A stretch of 64,000 nucleotides of DNA. Origin: Candidatus Poribacteria bacterium. GTDB taxonomy: Bacteria > Poribacteria > WGA-4E > WGA-3G. A model generated the notes under the pieces. The model saw nothing but the letters and a program-made list of their open reading frames with translations, was not told where the DNA came from and searched no databases. The stretch lies in NCBI GenBank assembly GCA_965205015.1, contig OZ242029.1, positions 576,001 to 640,000 of the forward strand. Reading direction: 5' to 3'. The position numbers were made by a program, and so were the translations under genes. Each line of letters starts with the position of its first letter. Positions within the stretch are counted from its first letter, which is position 1. This document shows positions 17,604-43,856 of the stretch, one piece after another.

Positions 17604-18218
17604 TTAATATATCCACTGAATGCCTTTTGCAATCAGAATTTTCCGCAGTTCCTCGGTGCACCGAAAAATCCAAATTTTCACAGTGCCGTCCTTGCGGTTG
17701 AGAATGCGGGCAATCTCTGCGATACTATAGCCTTCCAAGTGCCGTAACATCCACGCAATCCGATGATTTGGTTTCGTTACCTGTTCAAGGGCACCTTCCA
17801 AAATCTGTTGTGCTTCTGCGGCTTCTAATTCTTGCTCGGGACCTGGGCGCGGGTCCTCGTATTTACTCAGCGGCTGTTCATCCTCATCAGGTGAACCACT
17901 GAGCGGGTGTTCCCGGATCCTGTCCCGCTTGCGTATCGCATCGATAATCGTATTTCGCGCTACCGTATTTAACCACGCCTGAAAACTACCCTGCTCTGTG
18001 TCCCATTTGCCCAGCTTCTGCCAAACTTTAACGAACACATCCGAGGCAACCTCTTCAGCATCTTGATAATTTCCAAGCATTCGGTAGGCTTTATTATAAA
18101 CCCACTTATAATGCTTGTCGAACAATTGCCTAAACGCGGCTTCGTTGCCTGCTTTCGCTTGCGTCGCGAGATAGGTATCTTCGACAGCAGATAAGTCATT
18201 AGATATTTGGCGCGCCAT
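17604..18218 (-). CDS. ECF RNA polymerase sigma factor
   Basis: DAEEVASDVFVKVW, FQAWL..VARN.IID and region 4 EGYSIAEIARIL..GTVK. Confidence 0.92.
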   Translation of the reverse strand: MARQISNDLSAVEDTYLATQAKAGNEAAFRQLFDKHYKWVYNKAYRMLGNYQDAEEVASDVFVKVWQKLGKWDTEQGSFQAWLNTVARNTIIDAIRKRDRIREHPLSGSPDEDEQPLSKYEDPRPGPEQELEAAEAQQILEGALEQVTKPNHRIAWMLRHLEGYSIAEIARILNRKDGTVKIWIFRCTEELRKILIAKGIQWIY

Positions 18219-18382
18219 TCAAATCTGCTCCTTCGCCTATAAGGATCTACTCTTCCGCCTATAAGGACCCTTTTCAGCAGGCTATGCAATGTAACGTCAA
18301 TGAATTCGATAACGTTTCAAAAAAGGAAAAGAGTGGCACGCTGTAGAGAATTAACGCGCTACCAACGTTCACTAATAGACTT

Positions 18383-18537
18383 GTGATACTACCCAACGCC
18401 TAAAGGCGTGGGCTTCGGTTTCATAGCAACTGCGTTCTTCCGAAAGGGTTGAACGTCTTATTATCGCTCCACCCGTAGGCTCTTATTCCGAATCAGATCG
18501 GCTTTATCTGGTTTATGCCCAGGGTACCCCAGCCTAC
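18383..18537 (-). ncRNA. Stand-alone TnpB-type omega-RNA (reRNA) scaffold
   Basis: Shares GGTGGAGCG...GCAGTTGCTATGAAACCGAAGCCC with the tnpB 3' region. The first stem covaries (GTAGGCT/AGCCTAC vs GCGGGCA/TGCCCGC). Confidence 0.75.
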
Positions 18538-18641
18538 AAAGAATGAATGAGAGGGTACCGATACAAGGCGTTGGGTCATTACGCCACAATCGACTTACAG
18601 GAACGATACCCGAAATGTATTTTAGAGTGATTGCGCACTTC

Positions 18642-18716
18642 GCACTCTATGCCCTTCTCACGGGGCGGTTAGGACTCTGCCAGAGATTGGCAGAGGTGAG
18701 AACCCTAACCAAGTGC
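18642..18716 (-). ncRNA. Pseudoknotted 5'-leader RNA motif, copy B
   Basis: GCACT-T-GGTTAGGG-TTCTCAC-CTCTGCCA/TGGCAGAG-TCCTAACC-GCCC-C-GTGAGAA-GGGC-ATAG-AGTGC. Confidence 0.7.
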
Positions 18717-18723
18717 TGATACA

Positions 18724-18752
18724 AGTATACTACAATTTACTGTGAATGTCAA
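18724..18752 (-). promoter_or_regulatory. sigma70-type promoter inside the non-autonomous element
   Basis: TTGACA-17 nt-TATACT on the minus strand. Confidence 0.75.
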
Positions 18753-18845
18753 GTTTATTTTTGATTTTCAACGATTAACGATATTAGACCCAACGCTAAA
18801 GCATTGGGACCTGTTAAGGGAGGATCGTAAAAACTAAAATGATCT

Positions 18846-19724
18846 CTATGAAACACTTCCCAGAACAATCCGTTCCTTCCCCGCATAGTCTTTGCGCAGT
18901 TCATACGTGGAATAGGCAGATTCAGCATCAAGAAGCGTGCGAACGGTGTCGGCTTGCGTCGCACCAATTTCAAGGATAAGCTTTCCACTCGGTGCGAGAT
19001 ATTTCGGTGCCTCAGCAATTAATCGACGAATAACGTCAAGACCGTCATCTCCAGCAAAGAGGGCAATTTCGGGTTCATGGTCCCGGACATCTGGACTCAA
19101 GGTGTCACGCTCCGTATTTTTGATATAGGGTGGATTGGAGGCTATCCAATCAAATTGGGCATCCCCATTCGCACATATTGCGTCTACTGGTTCAAACAGG
19201 TCTCCAGACAAAAACTTAATTTGCGCTGCGGAGGCGTGCGTTTCAGCGTTCTTTCGGGCAACGGCGAGAGCGGGATCAGAGATGTCCGTCGCAACGATCT
19301 CCCATTCTGGTTGTTGCACGGCAAGACTCGTCGCAATTACACCACTTCCTGTACCGAGTTCCAGTAAACGTTGGGAATTTCCGGCTTCTGTTGTGAGGAT
19401 CGTTTCAACGAGCTGTTCTGTCTCCGGGCGCGGAATGAGGACCCGTTCATCCACATAGAAATCCAAGGACATAAACTCCTTGCGATTCGTGAGGTAGCTA
19501 ACAGGTGTACGCGCGATTCTCTTTTTTATTAACTCTCGGAACGGTGTGAGGTGTTCTTGAAAGACGGGCATTTCAAAATGGAGATAGAGTTGCAGGCGGC
19601 TTTTTTCGAGCAGATGCCCAAGCAATACCTCAGCATCTAATCTCGGATTTGGGATGTCGTGCTGTTGGAAGTATTCCGCTGTCCAATCGAGCAGATCCAC
19701 TACGCGCCACATTTTACTCGGCAT
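18846..19724 (-). CDS. prmC: Release factor glutamine methyltransferase
   Basis: VLIPRPETE, ELGTGSG and SNPPY motifs, downstream of prfA. Confidence 0.95.
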   Translation of the reverse strand: MPSKMWRVVDLLDWTAEYFQQHDIPNPRLDAEVLLGHLLEKSRLQLYLHFEMPVFQEHLTPFRELIKKRIARTPVSYLTNRKEFMSLDFYVDERVLIPRPETEQLVETILTTEAGNSQRLLELGTGSGVIATSLAVQQPEWEIVATDISDPALAVARKNAETHASAAQIKFLSGDLFEPVDAICANGDAQFDWIASNPPYIKNTERDTLSPDVRDHEPEIALFAGDDGLDVIRRLIAEAPKYLAPSGKLILEIGATQADTVRTLLDAESAYSTYELRKDYAGKERIVLGSVS

Positions 19725-38990: not shown

Positions 38991-39797
38991 TTATACCAGT
39001 GTCCGTTGGAACCAGGCAACCGATCTGGCAATCACCGCTTGCTCCCATGCAACCGTATTGAAAGTATGATCGGCTTTATCAACGATCTCAAGTTCCGTCA
39101 AAGCATCGCGCCCGCGCATCAATTCGTAGTAACGTCTGCCGTGGGAGGCGGGCACGACATCATCACCACTACCATGAATCACGAGGAGCGCCCCCGTAAA
39201 CTGCTGAATCAAGATAGAAGGAGATAGGTGAGGGAGTTCTTCATAAAACGCCTTCCCGACGATGTTTGGGTTTAACTGCGCGATTTCCTCCGGGGTCGGC
39301 GTGTTCTTGGCTCTCTCCAAAATTTCGTTTTTCCGGTCTGGCGGATCGTCCGAGAGCGGTGCCCACATCACCGTCGATTTCACACGTGTATCTTGCCCAG
39401 AGACACACGCCGCGACACAGCCCCCCATGCTCAATCCCAAAATGCCGATGCGTTCAGGGTCTACCCCTTGCATAGCGGTAAGCACATCAATTGACTTGAC
39501 GGCATCCGAAATCTCGCCACCGATCGTCATTTCCGAGAAGTCGCCGGCACTGTCCCCGGAACCCCGAAAATCGAAGCGGAGCACATAGAACCCGATAGCG
39601 GCAAGTTCTCGGGCAGTTTTGACGAATATTCTGTGCGGTTCAACCTTCGTTCCCGTGAATCCGTGAAAAAAGGCAACTGCTGGACCCGGTGTTTCGTAAC
39701 CTGTTGGTGAATGCAGTATCCCGTTTATCTGCTGTCCTTGATTGTAAAATACGATCGGTCTTTCCATCATATCCTTCTTTTCCTTAGTGAGGTTCAC
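38991..39797 (-). CDS. Alpha/beta fold hydrolase
   Basis: HGFTG, FDFRGSGDS, GLSMGG nucleophile, HG..D..V and ADHTF. Confidence 0.9.
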   Translation of the reverse strand: MNLTKEKKDMMERPIVFYNQGQQINGILHSPTGYETPGPAVAFFHGFTGTKVEPHRIFVKTARELAAIGFYVLRFDFRGSGDSAGDFSEMTIGGEISDAVKSIDVLTAMQGVDPERIGILGLSMGGCVAACVSGQDTRVKSTVMWAPLSDDPPDRKNEILERAKNTPTPEEIAQLNPNIVGKAFYEELPHLSPSILIQQFTGALLVIHGSGDDVVPASHGRRYYELMRGRDALTELEIVDKADHTFNTVAWEQAVIARSVAWFQRTLV

Positions 39798-40055
39798 TCT
39801 CCATTTGACGCCAAAGCCCTCTGGAAATCCTCTGGACTTTCTGCTAAGATTGCAGCGCGATGCAGCTGCTTAAGGCGTTGGGGATCCTCAATTGTTTCTA
39901 ATACCGGTCTGAAAGTACGCGCCACATCCGGCTGTAATCGAAGCTCCAATGCTTCAAGGATATCCTCACGCGCGCGTTCTTTCATACCTTGTTCAAGTCC
40001 CTGTTCAAGTCCCTGTTGGTGTGCTTCCGCTGTTGCTTTCTCCGTCCAGTATTCG

Positions 40056-40220
40056 GTGATAGCACCCACAACCTAAAGGTTGGGGCTTCGGTTTCATAGC
40101 AACTGCGGTTTTCTCTAAGAGTCCACCGTCTAACTGTCGCTCCACCTGCGGGCATTTCCCTGATACTCTGAAATAGGTGAGCATCAGGCACATCGTCAAG
40201 TGACGGCTATCCCTGCCCGC
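40056..40220 (-). ncRNA. TnpB omega-RNA (reRNA) scaffold overlapping the tnpB 3' end
   Basis: Located at the right end, with stems GCGGGCA/TGCCCGC and the terminal hairpin. Conserved with 18383-18537. Confidence 0.75.
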
Positions 40221-41308
40221 AATATGTTTATCGCAGCGTTGATGTCCCTATCGTGGTGTGAACCACAGTCAGGACACGTCCACTGCCTATCAGAGAGTGA
40301 AAGATTTTCGTTTTTGTAGCCACAATCGGAACACGGTTTGGTTGTCGCAGTCCATTGACCGACCTGTTTCAAAAGACGCTTATGTTTGCTACACTTATAC
40401 TTCAATATCTCAACAAACTGGTAGAAAGCAAGGTCGGAGACTTTGCGTCCCCAAAGCCGTTTCATGCCATCAAGGTTCAAGGTCTCAATGGCAATAGTAT
40501 CAAAACGCTTACAAAGTTCAGAGGCAAGCTGCCAATGAAAGTCTTTGCGTTGATTAGAAACTTTACGGTGAAGTCGTGCCAATGCTCTGACACACCGCCA
40601 CCAGCCGTTAGAACCTTTCTGTTTACGGCTCAAGTCTTTGTTGAGTGCGCGAAGTTTCTTCAAGGAGTGTTTCAAAGGTTGGCGGTGTTGCTTCTTCTCA
40701 CCCGTGCTCAGGGTCAAGTAAGCGTCTTTCATGCCGAAGTCTGCCCCAACGCTTTCACCTGTTGTCGGCAGACGTTTCATATCCGTGTCGTCTGTAGTTA
40801 TGCAAAGCCAATAGTCACCGCAGGCATCACGCTTTATCGTGATATGCCGAATACAACCGTGCCACTGCCGGTGTTTGTGAAAAGTATAAGGCACGCGGTC
40901 AAAACGCCATTTACCTTTTTCCCATTTCCGGAAGGATATTGTAACTCGGTTGTCTTTGAGTTTCCAACCGGCGGGTCCCGGAAAGGTAATAGACTTAAAC
41001 TTGTTCCTACGTTTGATTTTCGGTCTACCGCCTATTTTGTCGAAGAACCGCTCATATGCATTATCAATACGCATCAACTCTTGTTGAACCGCTTGGCTCG
41101 GCAGGGACCTCCAATGCGGGTGCGTCGTCCGCTTGAGTTCTCTAAAGTGGTGATCCATAGCGTTATAGTTCGCATATGGCAGCCCGTCTTTATATCGCTG
41201 ACGGTGCCACTTATGGAAGTATTCATGCACTTGCCACATATCATCAAGCAGATTGCCGATGCGAATACAATTCGATTGGTGACCGAACGGATATTTATAG
41301 GTTTTCAT
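40196..41308 (-). CDS. tnpB: RNA-guided endonuclease TnpB
   Basis: RuvC-I GADFG, RuvC-II IETL, zinc finger CSDC..CPDC and RuvC-III HDRDINAA. The catalytic D-E-D is intact. Confidence 0.95.
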   Translation of the reverse strand: MKTYKYPFGHQSNCIRIGNLLDDMWQVHEYFHKWHRQRYKDGLPYANYNAMDHHFRELKRTTHPHWRSLPSQAVQQELMRIDNAYERFFDKIGGRPKIKRRNKFKSITFPGPAGWKLKDNRVTISFRKWEKGKWRFDRVPYTFHKHRQWHGCIRHITIKRDACGDYWLCITTDDTDMKRLPTTGESVGADFGMKDAYLTLSTGEKKQHRQPLKHSLKKLRALNKDLSRKQKGSNGWWRCVRALARLHRKVSNQRKDFHWQLASELCKRFDTIAIETLNLDGMKRLWGRKVSDLAFYQFVEILKYKCSKHKRLLKQVGQWTATTKPCSDCGYKNENLSLSDRQWTCPDCGSHHDRDINAAINILRAGIAVT

Positions 41309-41319
41309 GGTCTATCAAG

Positions 41320-41400
41320 TATCAAGTCTTTAACCCCTTGTTAGTGGGTAGGCAGGTACATTACCAAGCGGTAATGCTAACAATACCTGCCAACTTGATA
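41320..41400 (-). ncRNA. Pseudoknotted 5'-leader RNA motif, copy A (tnpB leader)
   Basis: TATCAAGT-T-GGCAGGTA-TTGTTAG-CATTACC/GGTAATG-TACCTGCC-T-ACCC-A-CTAACAA-G-GGGT-TAAAG-ACTTGATA. Confidence 0.7.
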
Positions 41401-41406
41401 TTACTA

Positions 41407-41435
41407 ATTATACCACAATTTTAGGTGAAAGTCAA
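41407..41435 (-). promoter_or_regulatory. sigma70-type tnpB promoter
   Basis: TTGACT-17 nt-TATAAT. Confidence 0.75.
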
Positions 41436-41541
41436 ATTAAAATGAGGCTATCAACCCTTATGCCGTCTACATCCCCTACCTAAAGGCAGGGGTCTTGACG
41501 GAAGATTGATAATATTAGATTGCTGCACGGTTTTCTCCAGT

Positions 41542-42447: not shown

Positions 42448-43856
42448 CTAAAGTTTGGACAATATTGTAAGTTTCAAGCTGCTTTGTCGAAAGGTAGCGT
42501 GGTATCGTGTTCAGATATGGGATGAATATTCTGTGAGTTGGTCTCTTCTTGGGAACTCGCAGAATATTCCAACGCTCTGAGGTGCGACTGTAAATAAGCG
42601 ACCCGTAACCCTTGGGTCAAGTGCTTCGGATGATACCAATGAATCCCGAGATGCTCGCAGACCTCTTTGACGCTCACGCGATCCGAGGGATACCGAGACC
42701 CAAACTTCAAGAAGACCAACTTCGTCAGAGACGCTGCGACGAAACTCAGCTGCACGAAGCGATTGATGCTTTTGCGAGACTTGACCCGATAGGCATCAAA
42801 TCCGAAATGCTGCTTGACATCTCGAAACGCTGTTTCTATCTGCCACCTCTGCCGGTAGTATTCAACGATCTTCGGGAGCTCCAAGGTCATATCTGTTGTA
42901 AAGACACAGAAATACCGATACGGTTTTGAGGGTTTGACTCGGGTGCGTATCACGACGAGTCGGACGTCTGTCGGACACATTTTCGTCCGAACGACCTCTG
43001 AGGCGACCTGATACGTTTTTTCCAGGATGCAAACGTCTTGATACCGTAAGCGTTGGATGTTCAAACGGTCTCCATATTTCTTCGGACGCCCGCGCTGGGG
43101 GCGCTTCGGACGTTTCGGTAAACGATAAAACACCGCATTTGACTTCGCACGACACAACAGATGATGTCCGAGTTCCAAGAGCATTTCAAAGACTTTTCGG
43201 CGGCAGAACCCTCTATCAAAGAGGATCAACCCCCGGGGGAGCTTTGAACAGATACGTTTCAACACCGCATCACCTTTGTCCCGGAGCGTCTGAGGTGCAA
43301 TGAGTTTCACCCAGACCGGAAACAGCAACCAATCTGCCGCTGTCTCGCAGAGTAAACCTAATGCCCCAAACTCGTGTCCGAAGTGAAACTTTGATTGATT
43401 CACGCGATGTTTACCGTGATAACTGAAGTTGCGGAAAAAATGTAAACCCCATTGGGTTTTACCCGTCTTCAAGGCTTTGGTGGCATCATAGACGTAAACC
43501 CAGTCGGCAAACACGCCCTGGAGCCTTTTCATCAGGCACGCAGCAACCGCATCGGTATCCCATTTGCCCCGGGAAAGAAACTTCGGAAACGACCAATAGC
43601 GTGTCGCGGATCCACTCGACTGATACAGGTGCGTCAGGCTGCCTCCAGGCGGTTGAGTCATAAACCCAAAAATAAATGCTTGAAAAAGCGCAAAGTTTTG
43701 GGAGTTGAACAAATGACGAAAATCCGATACAATACTTTCTAAGTGGAGAAGCAGGGGCATTTTTGCCTTCCTTTCAAAACAGTGGTATGTTTATGAAAGG
43801 ATACCTGCTTTTCTGCTTTCAAACATCTTAATTCTTTAAAATTGTCCAAACTTTAG
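42448..43856 (-). mobile_element. IS4-superfamily (IS701/ISH3-like) insertion sequence, 1409 bp
   Basis: Perfect 16-bp TIR CTAAAGTTTGGACAAT and 8-bp target duplication TCATCGTA (42440-42447, 43857-43864). Confidence 0.9.
42474..43760 (-). CDS. DDE transposase (IS4 superfamily)
   Basis: YDAT, FDRGF and YRQRWQIETAFRDVKQ (YREK signature). Confidence 0.9.
   Translation of the reverse strand: MPLLLHLESIVSDFRHLFNSQNFALFQAFIFGFMTQPPGGSLTHLYQSSGSATRYWSFPKFLSRGKWDTDAVAACLMKRLQGVFADWVYVYDATKALKTGKTQWGLHFFRNFSYHGKHRVNQSKFHFGHEFGALGLLCETAADWLLFPVWVKLIAPQTLRDKGDAVLKRICSKLPRGLILFDRGFCRRKVFEMLLELGHHLLCRAKSNAVFYRLPKRPKRPQRGRPKKYGDRLNIQRLRYQDVCILEKTYQVASEVVRTKMCPTDVRLVVIRTRVKPSKPYRYFCVFTTDMTLELPKIVEYYRQRWQIETAFRDVKQHFGFDAYRVKSRKSINRFVQLSFVAASLTKLVFLKFGSRYPSDRVSVKEVCEHLGIHWYHPKHLTQGLRVAYLQSHLRALEYSASSQEETNSQNIHPISEHDTTLPFDKAA

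Follow-up and report, generated by a model that had tools for sequence, protein, structure and literature searches.

Palindrome-associated transposable elements (PATEs) were reportedly first defined in Haloquadratum (PMC3119063). Gene-less, PATE-like elements of Geobacillus stearothermophilus, which often encode omega-RNAs needing TnpB in trans, were described in passages of Meers et al. 2023 (PMC10055086). Stand-alone omega-RNAs, mobilised and functioning in trans, were reported in sections of Altae-Tran et al. 2023 PNAS (PMC10691335, citing the 2021 paper); the biological role of these RNAs was called unknown there, and inactivated TnpB/Cas12f systems linked to RpoE, an extracytoplasmic function (ECF) sigma factor, were reported in the same sections. 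IStrons, as outlined in parts of a preprint by Zedaveinyte et al. 2023, combine an IS605 or IS607 element with a group I intron on its 5′ flank side. Here we describe a protein-less IS605-like element of 445 bp (18383–18827, with all its parts on the minus strand) in a stretch of 64,000 nt from contig OZ242029.1 of a Candidatus Poribacteria bacterium (this whole stretch is called the window below). The element is probably a non-autonomous IS200/IS605 PATE of a Poribacteria-wide lineage, with a self-promoted omega-RNA, used in trans by TnpB, as its cargo and with ends used by a Y1 TnpA. We have high confidence in the class assignment, a PATE with a stand-alone omega-RNA, and moderate confidence that this copy is retained through TnpB acting in trans.

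Like the stand-alone omega-RNAs treated in parts of PMC10691335 and reported there to act in trans with compatible effectors, the element combined transposon ends with an omega-RNA and had neither effector nor transposase, and its family occurred in genomes with effector loci. Unlike them, it belonged to a Poribacteria family in which the internal promoter was conserved, the pseudoknotted leader covaried and the middle domain was specific to the lineage; no description of these features was found in the literature searched. Like the PATEs covered by passages of PMC10055086, which are mobilised in trans by TnpA, it was gene-less and bounded by IS200/IS605 end hairpins. At 445 bp it was large among PATEs, its interior was structured and conserved throughout, and its family comprised two subfamilies, with one module joined to two scaffold/end types.

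Anatomy of the element

The element began 18 nt past the stop codon of prmC (18846–19724), and 165 nt separated its end from the start of an ECF sigma factor gene (Table 1). Its 5′ boundary was the CGATCC starting at 18827 and its 3′ boundary the terminus AGTATCAC, with the last base at 18383. Both boundaries were backed by 18 related genomes, in which the homology of the flanks stopped at TTTA and resumed at TCA(T/C)AAGTCT. The left flank was TTTA and the right flank AAGT, without a target-site duplication. A left-end hairpin, CCCAATGC-TTTA-GCGTTGGG (18808–18789), resembled a right-end hairpin, CCCACGCC-TTTA-GGCGTTGGG (18412–18392), as expected of IS200/IS605 ends. Two similar subterminal hairpins, one near each end and each with TTTA as its loop, and the absence of terminal inverted repeats identified the element as a member of IS200/IS605. 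The left cleavage site was 19 nt from its hairpin, and the right hairpin was 9 nt from the right end, a spacing that we take to be like that of IS608. The left-flank TTTA is presumed to be both the target of TnpA and the transposon-associated motif (TAM) of TnpB. When the exact TAM and the pairing rules of the left-end guide were compared by hand with the IS608 scheme, the outcome was ambiguous (TTAA against TTTA followed by A), and the observed flanks alone are reported.

On both strands from 18100 to 18950, TTGACA-17-TATACT was the only promoter-like site; shuffled sequences also averaged one site, so that the evidence for this promoter is its conservation in relatives. Only chance open reading frames (ORFs) of at most 58 aa were present in the element, varying in strand and frame among 12 relatives and with none conserved, and no match to a TnpB or TnpA protein was found inside it. 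No Rfam match was obtained for the whole window at gathering thresholds, and within 18300–18900 the matches at E up to 10 did not rise above chance.

An earlier note on this DNA, made from its letters without database searches, had described both IS ends, a promoter, a pseudoknot leader, a structured middle and an omega-RNA scaffold, and this anatomy was borne out, coordinates included. The guide that it had named, AAGTCTATTAGTGAACGTTG, was indeed the 20 nt beyond the right end (18382–18363); this sequence occurred once in the window, and its flank was conserved in the 18 relatives. The note had also seen no tnpB remnant. Nothing else in the element resembled tnpB, but ~10 codons of a tnpB 3′ end persisted, with an in-frame stop.

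Table 1. Features of the protein-less element and of the loci compared with it (window positions)
Feature	Position	Strand	Remarks
Left flank TTTA	18828..18831	-	Flank homology of 18 genomes ends there; same flank at the protein-less element L013 and at clade-B element L024
Left end	18783..18827	-	First 19 nt CGATCC...AGGT, then hairpin
Sigma-70-type promoter TTGACA-17-TATACT	18724..18752	-	11/12 consensus positions; boxes and spacing common to most related protein-less elements
Leader	18641..18718	-	Closing stem P0, P1, P2, pseudoknot, small stem GCCC/GGGC, tandem acceptor GAGTGC-G-AAGTGC; helices covary
Mini-specific middle module	18553..18649	-	Alignment A2, model R1, covariation
Omega-RNA scaffold, clade-B type	18383..18540	-	~157 nt, 84–93% identical to clade-B tnpB 3′ ends; covarying stems
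Predicted guide AAGTCTATTAGTGAACGTTG	18363..18382	-	Position from the established TnpB model; overlaps the conserved GAAC-N16-TTCTC upstream of the ECF sigma factor gene
ECF sigma factor gene	17604..18218	-	Pfam Sigma70_r2/r4_2/ECF; downstream of the element, same strand; ORF intact
Full-length clade-A tnpB element (tnpB 40196–41308)	40056..41508	-	Flank TTAT, promoter, same kind of leader, other scaffold type; comparator, not parent

A family of protein-less elements in Poribacteria

In a scan for one exact scaffold 20-mer, in which each prokaryote species was represented by one genome, 49 loci were found, 47 of them titled Poribacteria and two "uncultured bacterium". Ten of the 49 were without tnpB. 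The genes flanking the window element were 87–92% identical to those of two Poribacteria genomes and, judged by these sequences, the host is a poribacterium, a sponge symbiont.

Seventeen distinct protein-less relatives (with the window element, minis) came from other Poribacteria genomes, each with a different right flank. The minis had a common plan of left-end hairpin, TTGAC(A/T)-17-TATAAT-like promoter, leader, stem S, domain X, scaffold and right end. RNAalifold, run on 12 minis, gave 83 pairs; compensatory changes were seen at 29 of these, and such pairs occurred in the leader, in X and in the scaffold. The proposal that the RNA is maintained was thus supported, as the 17 relatives kept promoter, leader, middle domain and scaffold.

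The middle module consisted of stem S (AGAGTG...CACTCT) and domain X, in which GGGTATCG (18611–18604) paired with CGGTACCC (18560–18553) to form a hairpin. A covariance model of S and X (R1) gave 62 matches in 20/150 Poribacteria genomes, including 24 in genome G110 (26 candidates scored) and 11 in G113. All 30 R1 loci that were inspected were mini-type or partial copies, with tnpB inside none of them; two small tnpB fragments were detected at R1 loci by tblastn, both outside the elements (1.5 kb upstream at L100, on the opposite strand at L114). G110 contained 13 further copies, 97–100% identical over ~453 bp and at different sites, and the window itself contained one mini. The wide DNA search scored two candidates per genome, and no copy numbers are taken from it. 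For one G110 copy the empty site was approximate only (TTA..., ~80% identity), the spacers of relatives being too diverged.

The near-identical full-length parent that the earlier note had set against its own reading was not found within the genomes searched. Neither a full-length element with the mini-type leader (5 genomes) nor one with the middle module (R1, 150 genomes) was found, only protein-less copies; seven extra mini-leader matches fetched from five genomes were six protein-less minis, all of the second subfamily described below, and one truncated copy.

The omega-RNA scaffold and two clades of TnpB

The tnpB genes at the 49 scaffold loci formed two groups, clade A, with TnpB 65–85% identical to the TnpB of the window, and clade B, with TnpB 47–50% identical to it. 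Clade-B TnpB matched the ISDra2 TnpB structures (PDB 8EXA, 8BF8 and 8H1J) over the full length (E 5e-48).

The scaffold of the window mini contained the ~10 degenerate tnpB codons, the right-end hairpin and the terminal AGTATCAC, and ended in TATCAC. The last 152–157 nt of the mini were 84–93% identical to clade-B elements, the best being L024 (93% over 152 nt), whereas only the last 90 nt matched the clade-A element of the window, at 78% identity. The match to clade B began ~24 nt before the tnpB stop codon, and a CAG codon had changed to TAG in the remnant. One 23-mer of the scaffold occurred exactly twice in the window, in the mini and at 40084–40106, with 0 expected. GC/UA/CG exchanges were seen in the scaffold stems of the 12 minis, and the covariation of a scaffold stem with the local tnpB element, as described earlier, was recovered as a G-C to U-A change (columns 357/376: GC in nine, UA in three).

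The left flank was TTTA at the window mini, at its closest relative L013 and at L024; it was TTAA in the commonest type of mini and TTAT at the window tnpB element and 5/5 clade-A-type minis. Scaffold and TTTA flank would assign the mini to clade B, and the window TnpB (40196–41308) is unlikely to be its partner. The earlier note had considered this TnpB or others of the genome; the likely partner, by scaffold type and flank, is of clade B. An intact clade-B TnpB, 74–83% identical to that of L024, was present in 5/5 mini-bearing genomes checked, and Y1 TnpA (PF01797) in 154/175 Poribacteria genomes. In agreement with the earlier note, the mini was not a simple deletion product of the local tnpB element, because its scaffold was clade-B-like, its flank was TTTA and not TTAT, and its interior came from a lineage for which a full-length parent was not found.

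The clade-B type resembled the TnpB-omega-RNA of ISDra2 in its protein match and in a scaffold that shares sequence with the 3′ end of tnpB and is bounded by the right end. Unlike ISDra2, the mini had an RNA unrelated at the nucleotide level, a putative TAM of TTTA (TTGAT in ISDra2) and no protein in cis.

A second subfamily of minis (L034, L026, L042, L047 and L133–L138) had the same plan of leader, S and X, with a larger, different domain X. Its ends were of clade-A type with the flank TTAT, and several copies had a clade-A-type scaffold. L135, L138 and L133 (three of five tested), as well as L034, L026 and L042, gave a longer alignment to the 3′ end of the window clade-A element than to clade B; the alignments covered 171–177 nt for five of these six, and 108 nt for L133, which had no clade-B match. 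The alignment of L136 and L137 to the clade-A 3′ end was only ~101 nt, little above clade B. This pattern suggests module swapping between element lineages.

These comparisons bear on whether the element could be what an internal deletion left of a tnpB element, neutral and decaying, carried for the ends that TnpA needs and with a functionless promoter, leader and scaffold. Deletion derivatives of IS200/IS605 elements (miniature inverted-repeat transposable elements and PATEs) are common, some relatives (L085, L098, L101, L118 and L132) were decayed or truncated, and the tnpB remnant of the window copy had its in-frame stop. However, helices in the interior, far from the ends, were compensated across copies only 70–80% identical, the same interior was joined to two scaffold/end types, and the full-length element from which such a remnant would derive was not found. 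An origin of the middle module within the coding region of tnpB was rejected, as 16 local alignments to the 3′ coding part of clade-B tnpB scored like shuffles (z -1.0 to 1.4). We consider a functionless remnant highly improbable.

One genome, G004 (4.0 Mb; L004, L010, L015, L017, L022, L023, L027, L040, L043 and L048), had many clade-A tnpB copies broken into two to four frames and 23 Y1 transposase matches, two with internal stops, which looks like a burst followed by decay.

A pseudoknotted leader shared with full-length elements

The fold of the leader comprised, in order, an 8-bp P1 (GGTTAGGG/TCCTAACC, 18710–18703 with 18674–18667), a 7-nt bulge, the P2 hairpin (CTCTGCCA/TGGCAGAG, 18695–18675), the return strand of P1, and a short stem whose loop paired with the bulge to form the pseudoknot helix (TTCTCAC, 18702–18696, with GTGAGAA, 18661–18655). 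The pairing was read on the sense strand because G-U pairs occur. The leader stood behind the promoter in minis and ahead of tnpB in both clades. In full-length tnpB elements (L001–L049; 41309–41420 in the window) it was located between promoter and start codon, and the pseudoknot of the window tnpB element was TTGTTAG/CTAACAA. By geometric search the fold was found in 37/61 entries, which represent 59 loci (some of them duplicates) and the two window elements; the misses were mostly truncated loci, degenerate tnpB copies, elements with one mismatch and elements with an enlarged P2. In L001 and L036 (clade B), P2 was enlarged by a GC-rich insert of ~25 nt, and the strands of P1 and the pseudoknot were kept.

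Among 30 distinct sequences, from minis and full-length tnpB elements, 19/25 pairs of the leader changed on both sides, and in the 7-bp loop-bulge helix a single position showed as many as six types of pair. Covariation was scored at 0.826, as against 0.223 for shuffles and at most 0.107 with the partners slid. The 3′ strand of the closing stem was tandemly duplicated, with copies 7 nt apart (e.g. CTTGATACTTGATA before the tnpB start codon, GCAAGTTGCAAGT in minis and GAGTGCGAAGTGC in the window mini). These copies covaried with the 5′ strand, with two partner sites in 26/35 elements and at least one in 33/35. In the full-length elements, the tandem heptamer (e.g. CTTGATACTTGATA) was located 6–9 nt upstream of the tnpB ATG, and both of its copies covaried with the 5′ partner strand.

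Minis have no ORF and yet keep the leader, and it is therefore unlikely to serve tnpB translation alone. It appears to act on the RNA, not on tnpB translation, and our preferred guesses are a 5′ RNA-stabilising structure or a two-state switch. In a comparison of topologies by hand, the leader did not fit a hepatitis delta virus-like, hammerhead, twister or pistol ribozyme. No published description of it was found in the literature searched.

Two further observations concern altered leaders. At L085, which is the same locus as L119 (G113:C1 ~3775800-3776120), the whole pseudoknot was lost and the promoter joined straight to stem S, with X, scaffold and right end kept. In G110 two similar short forms seem to be present (split leader matches at 2242610 and 1837891).

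Like IStrons, as far as parts of the preprint of Zedaveinyte et al. 2023 describe them, the minis had a structured RNA near the left end, in one predicted transcript with a right-end omega-RNA, and PATE forms of IStrons exist. Unlike them, the minis had a leader of ~100 nt behind an internal promoter, no intron or ribozyme match was obtained in Rfam, and nothing suggested splicing.

The conservation of the leader raises the alternative that leader, S and X form a regulatory or structural RNA independent of TnpB (a switch, a stabiliser or a protein sponge), with the scaffold as a passenger. The leader was fully compensated even in minis, which have no ORF to regulate; the tandem acceptor, with both copies covarying, suggests alternative pairings, and no Rfam family was matched. 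On the other hand, the scaffold was the best-conserved part of the minis, its type always matched the end type and the TnpB clade present in the same genomes, and the leader also preceded tnpB in full-length elements, which ties it to the TnpB system. An RNA that works without TnpB is thus improbable in our judgement.

The insertion site upstream of an ECF sigma factor gene

At the orthologous sites (L062–L088), the spacer between prmC and the sigma factor gene was without the element in 18/18 related genomes and was 117–300 nt long. In all 18 it held the promoter TTGACAtattttgtgaaaat(t/a)ttaTATAAT (TTGACA-N17-TATAAT), which was absent in the window. The relatives read TCAT followed by AAGTCTATTAG where the window reads TCAC followed by AAGTCTATTAG, and the deletion ended flush with the right end of the element. 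As the 117–300 nt of the relatives were missing beside the right end, the element replaced the spacer together with its native sigma-70 promoter and was not simply inserted. The element was absent from the orthologous site in every relative, but a clean empty site was not seen because of the extra nucleotides there. One may speculate that the replacement was caused by aberrant integration using two cleavage sites, since TCAT resembles TCAC.

Like the guides of TldR and RpoE-linked TnpB, the predicted guide stood beside a regulatory gene, here just upstream of the ECF sigma factor gene. Those systems, as reported in PMC10691335 and 10.1101/2023.11.30.569447, are domesticated and immobile, have a nuclease-dead TnpB gene adjacent and are without transposon ends. 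Unlike them, the mini had both ends intact, no adjacent TnpB gene, and a site empty of the element in 18/18 relatives. The resemblance to the RpoE-linked TnpB literature is probably a coincidence, because the relatives were without the element at the site and no TnpB gene was adjacent.

There is some chance, if clearly a minor one, that this copy persists mainly as a co-opted promoter of the ECF sigma factor gene, reading through the right end, with its omega-RNA role secondary or gone; such a capture would be compatible with a guide used in trans by TnpB. The element stood on the same strand and exactly in the place of the native promoter stretch of the 18 relatives, and its promoter pointed toward the sigma factor gene. 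No terminator-like site was found on the minus strand between the element (18383) and the gene (18218), and the sigma ORF was intact. Against this, the stretch GAAC-N16-TTCTC that overlaps the guide resembles an ECF-type promoter and may be autoregulated, so that the sigma factor gene may not need the element. Moreover, the family was mobile and was conserved at many unrelated sites, and co-option cannot explain its architecture.

Expression and a proposed mechanism

RNA evidence came from contigs assembled from four metatranscriptome runs, each of a different study, and matched at 85% likeness; such contigs show neither ends nor strand, and DNA carry-over is possible. They covered the conserved scaffold, and some extended to domain X in related minis (X15, X19) or to the coding part of tnpB (X19, X21), a weak hint that relatives of the mini are transcribed. 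Most RNA runs matched only small shares of the query words and gave no evidence for expression or habitat.

In the mechanism that we propose, the internal sigma-70 promoter would start an RNA of ~335 nt near 18717, which would fold into the pseudoknotted leader, the lineage-specific middle domain and the clade-B-type scaffold. The transcript would cross the right end (18383) into the flank, and those 16–20 nt would be the guide. The scaffold would be bound by a clade-B TnpB from another locus of the genome, and a Y1 TnpA, likewise encoded elsewhere, would excise the element. The donor site, once rejoined (TTTA plus guide match), would then be cleaved by TnpB, and the element would be regained by recombination with the sister copy. 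The guide of every mini is fixed by the flank of that copy, so that each has to bring and express an omega-RNA for itself; this need would account for the persistence of promoter and RNA in elements that have no gene.

Several points weigh against retention by this mechanism. The site was not a clean insertion, given the missing 117–300 nt next to the right end; at this locus the donor joint of TTTA and guide was perhaps never formed, and the copy is perhaps unable to move. Clade-B TnpB and Y1 TnpA were absent from the 64-kb window, the only TnpB there being of clade A. No contig in the four RNA runs spanned the window copy, and 18551–18658 was without cover. Because only leader rows that paired could pass the selection filter, their figure of 98% paired is circular, and the variety of pair types alone is informative. 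L085 had no pseudoknot and yet retained the rest, and the -10 boxes of L006, L007, L045 and L084 were poor. Beyond the anatomy, the family membership, the mobility of the family, its structural conservation and the partner genes in related genomes, which were observed, we infer for this copy its transcription, the 3′ end and processing of its RNA, the partnership with and binding by TnpB, and the function for which it is retained.

Other mobile elements in the window

A DDE transposase gene (428 aa; PF01609/PF13546, IS4-like; 42474–43760, minus strand) was located ~1 kb beyond the left end of the window tnpB element, and the region is thus rich in mobile elements. A 91-aa ORF (39794–40069, minus strand) had its GTG start at 40069, within ...GGGTGCTATCAC, which places the start 13 nt into the clade-A tnpB element from the right end. 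Insertion of the tnpB element may have occurred within this ORF or immediately ahead of it, and the ORF may owe its start to the element.

Conclusions

The earlier note had implied that such an element was new, but stand-alone omega-RNAs and PATEs using TnpB in trans had already been published (Meers 2023; Altae-Tran 2021/2023). This class is known but has not been described in the phylum Poribacteria, and no paper treating TnpB together with Poribacteria was found in the literature searched; the family is unusually well conserved. Against the literature searched, three features looked new, namely a covarying leader that has a tandem acceptor and is also present in full-length elements; a middle module specific to minis and found with two types of scaffold; and the replacement of the native sigma-70 promoter of a downstream ECF sigma factor gene by an element.

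As a speculation that we hold only tentatively, the leader may be an undescribed module that decides the fate of IS605 transcripts, as a conformational switch or as a protective cap for omega-RNA accumulation. The protein-less lineage might then be a "guide-only" hyperparasite, which, having retained the leader, exploits at least two TnpB clades with an added middle domain and swapped scaffolds and ends, and of which one copy would have been captured here to drive an ECF sigma factor gene.

With its compact omega-RNA cassettes, which have promoters of their own, and with two TnpB clades whose inferred TAMs are TTTA or TTAA in one and TTAT in the other, the family offers material for tests, and it includes a case of an omega-RNA cassette replacing a host promoter. 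It is also a natural data set of dozens of diverged gene-less copies, in which selection is limited to the ends and the RNA, and yet promoter, leader and scaffold are kept. This conservation argues that expression of the guide is itself what the element needs.

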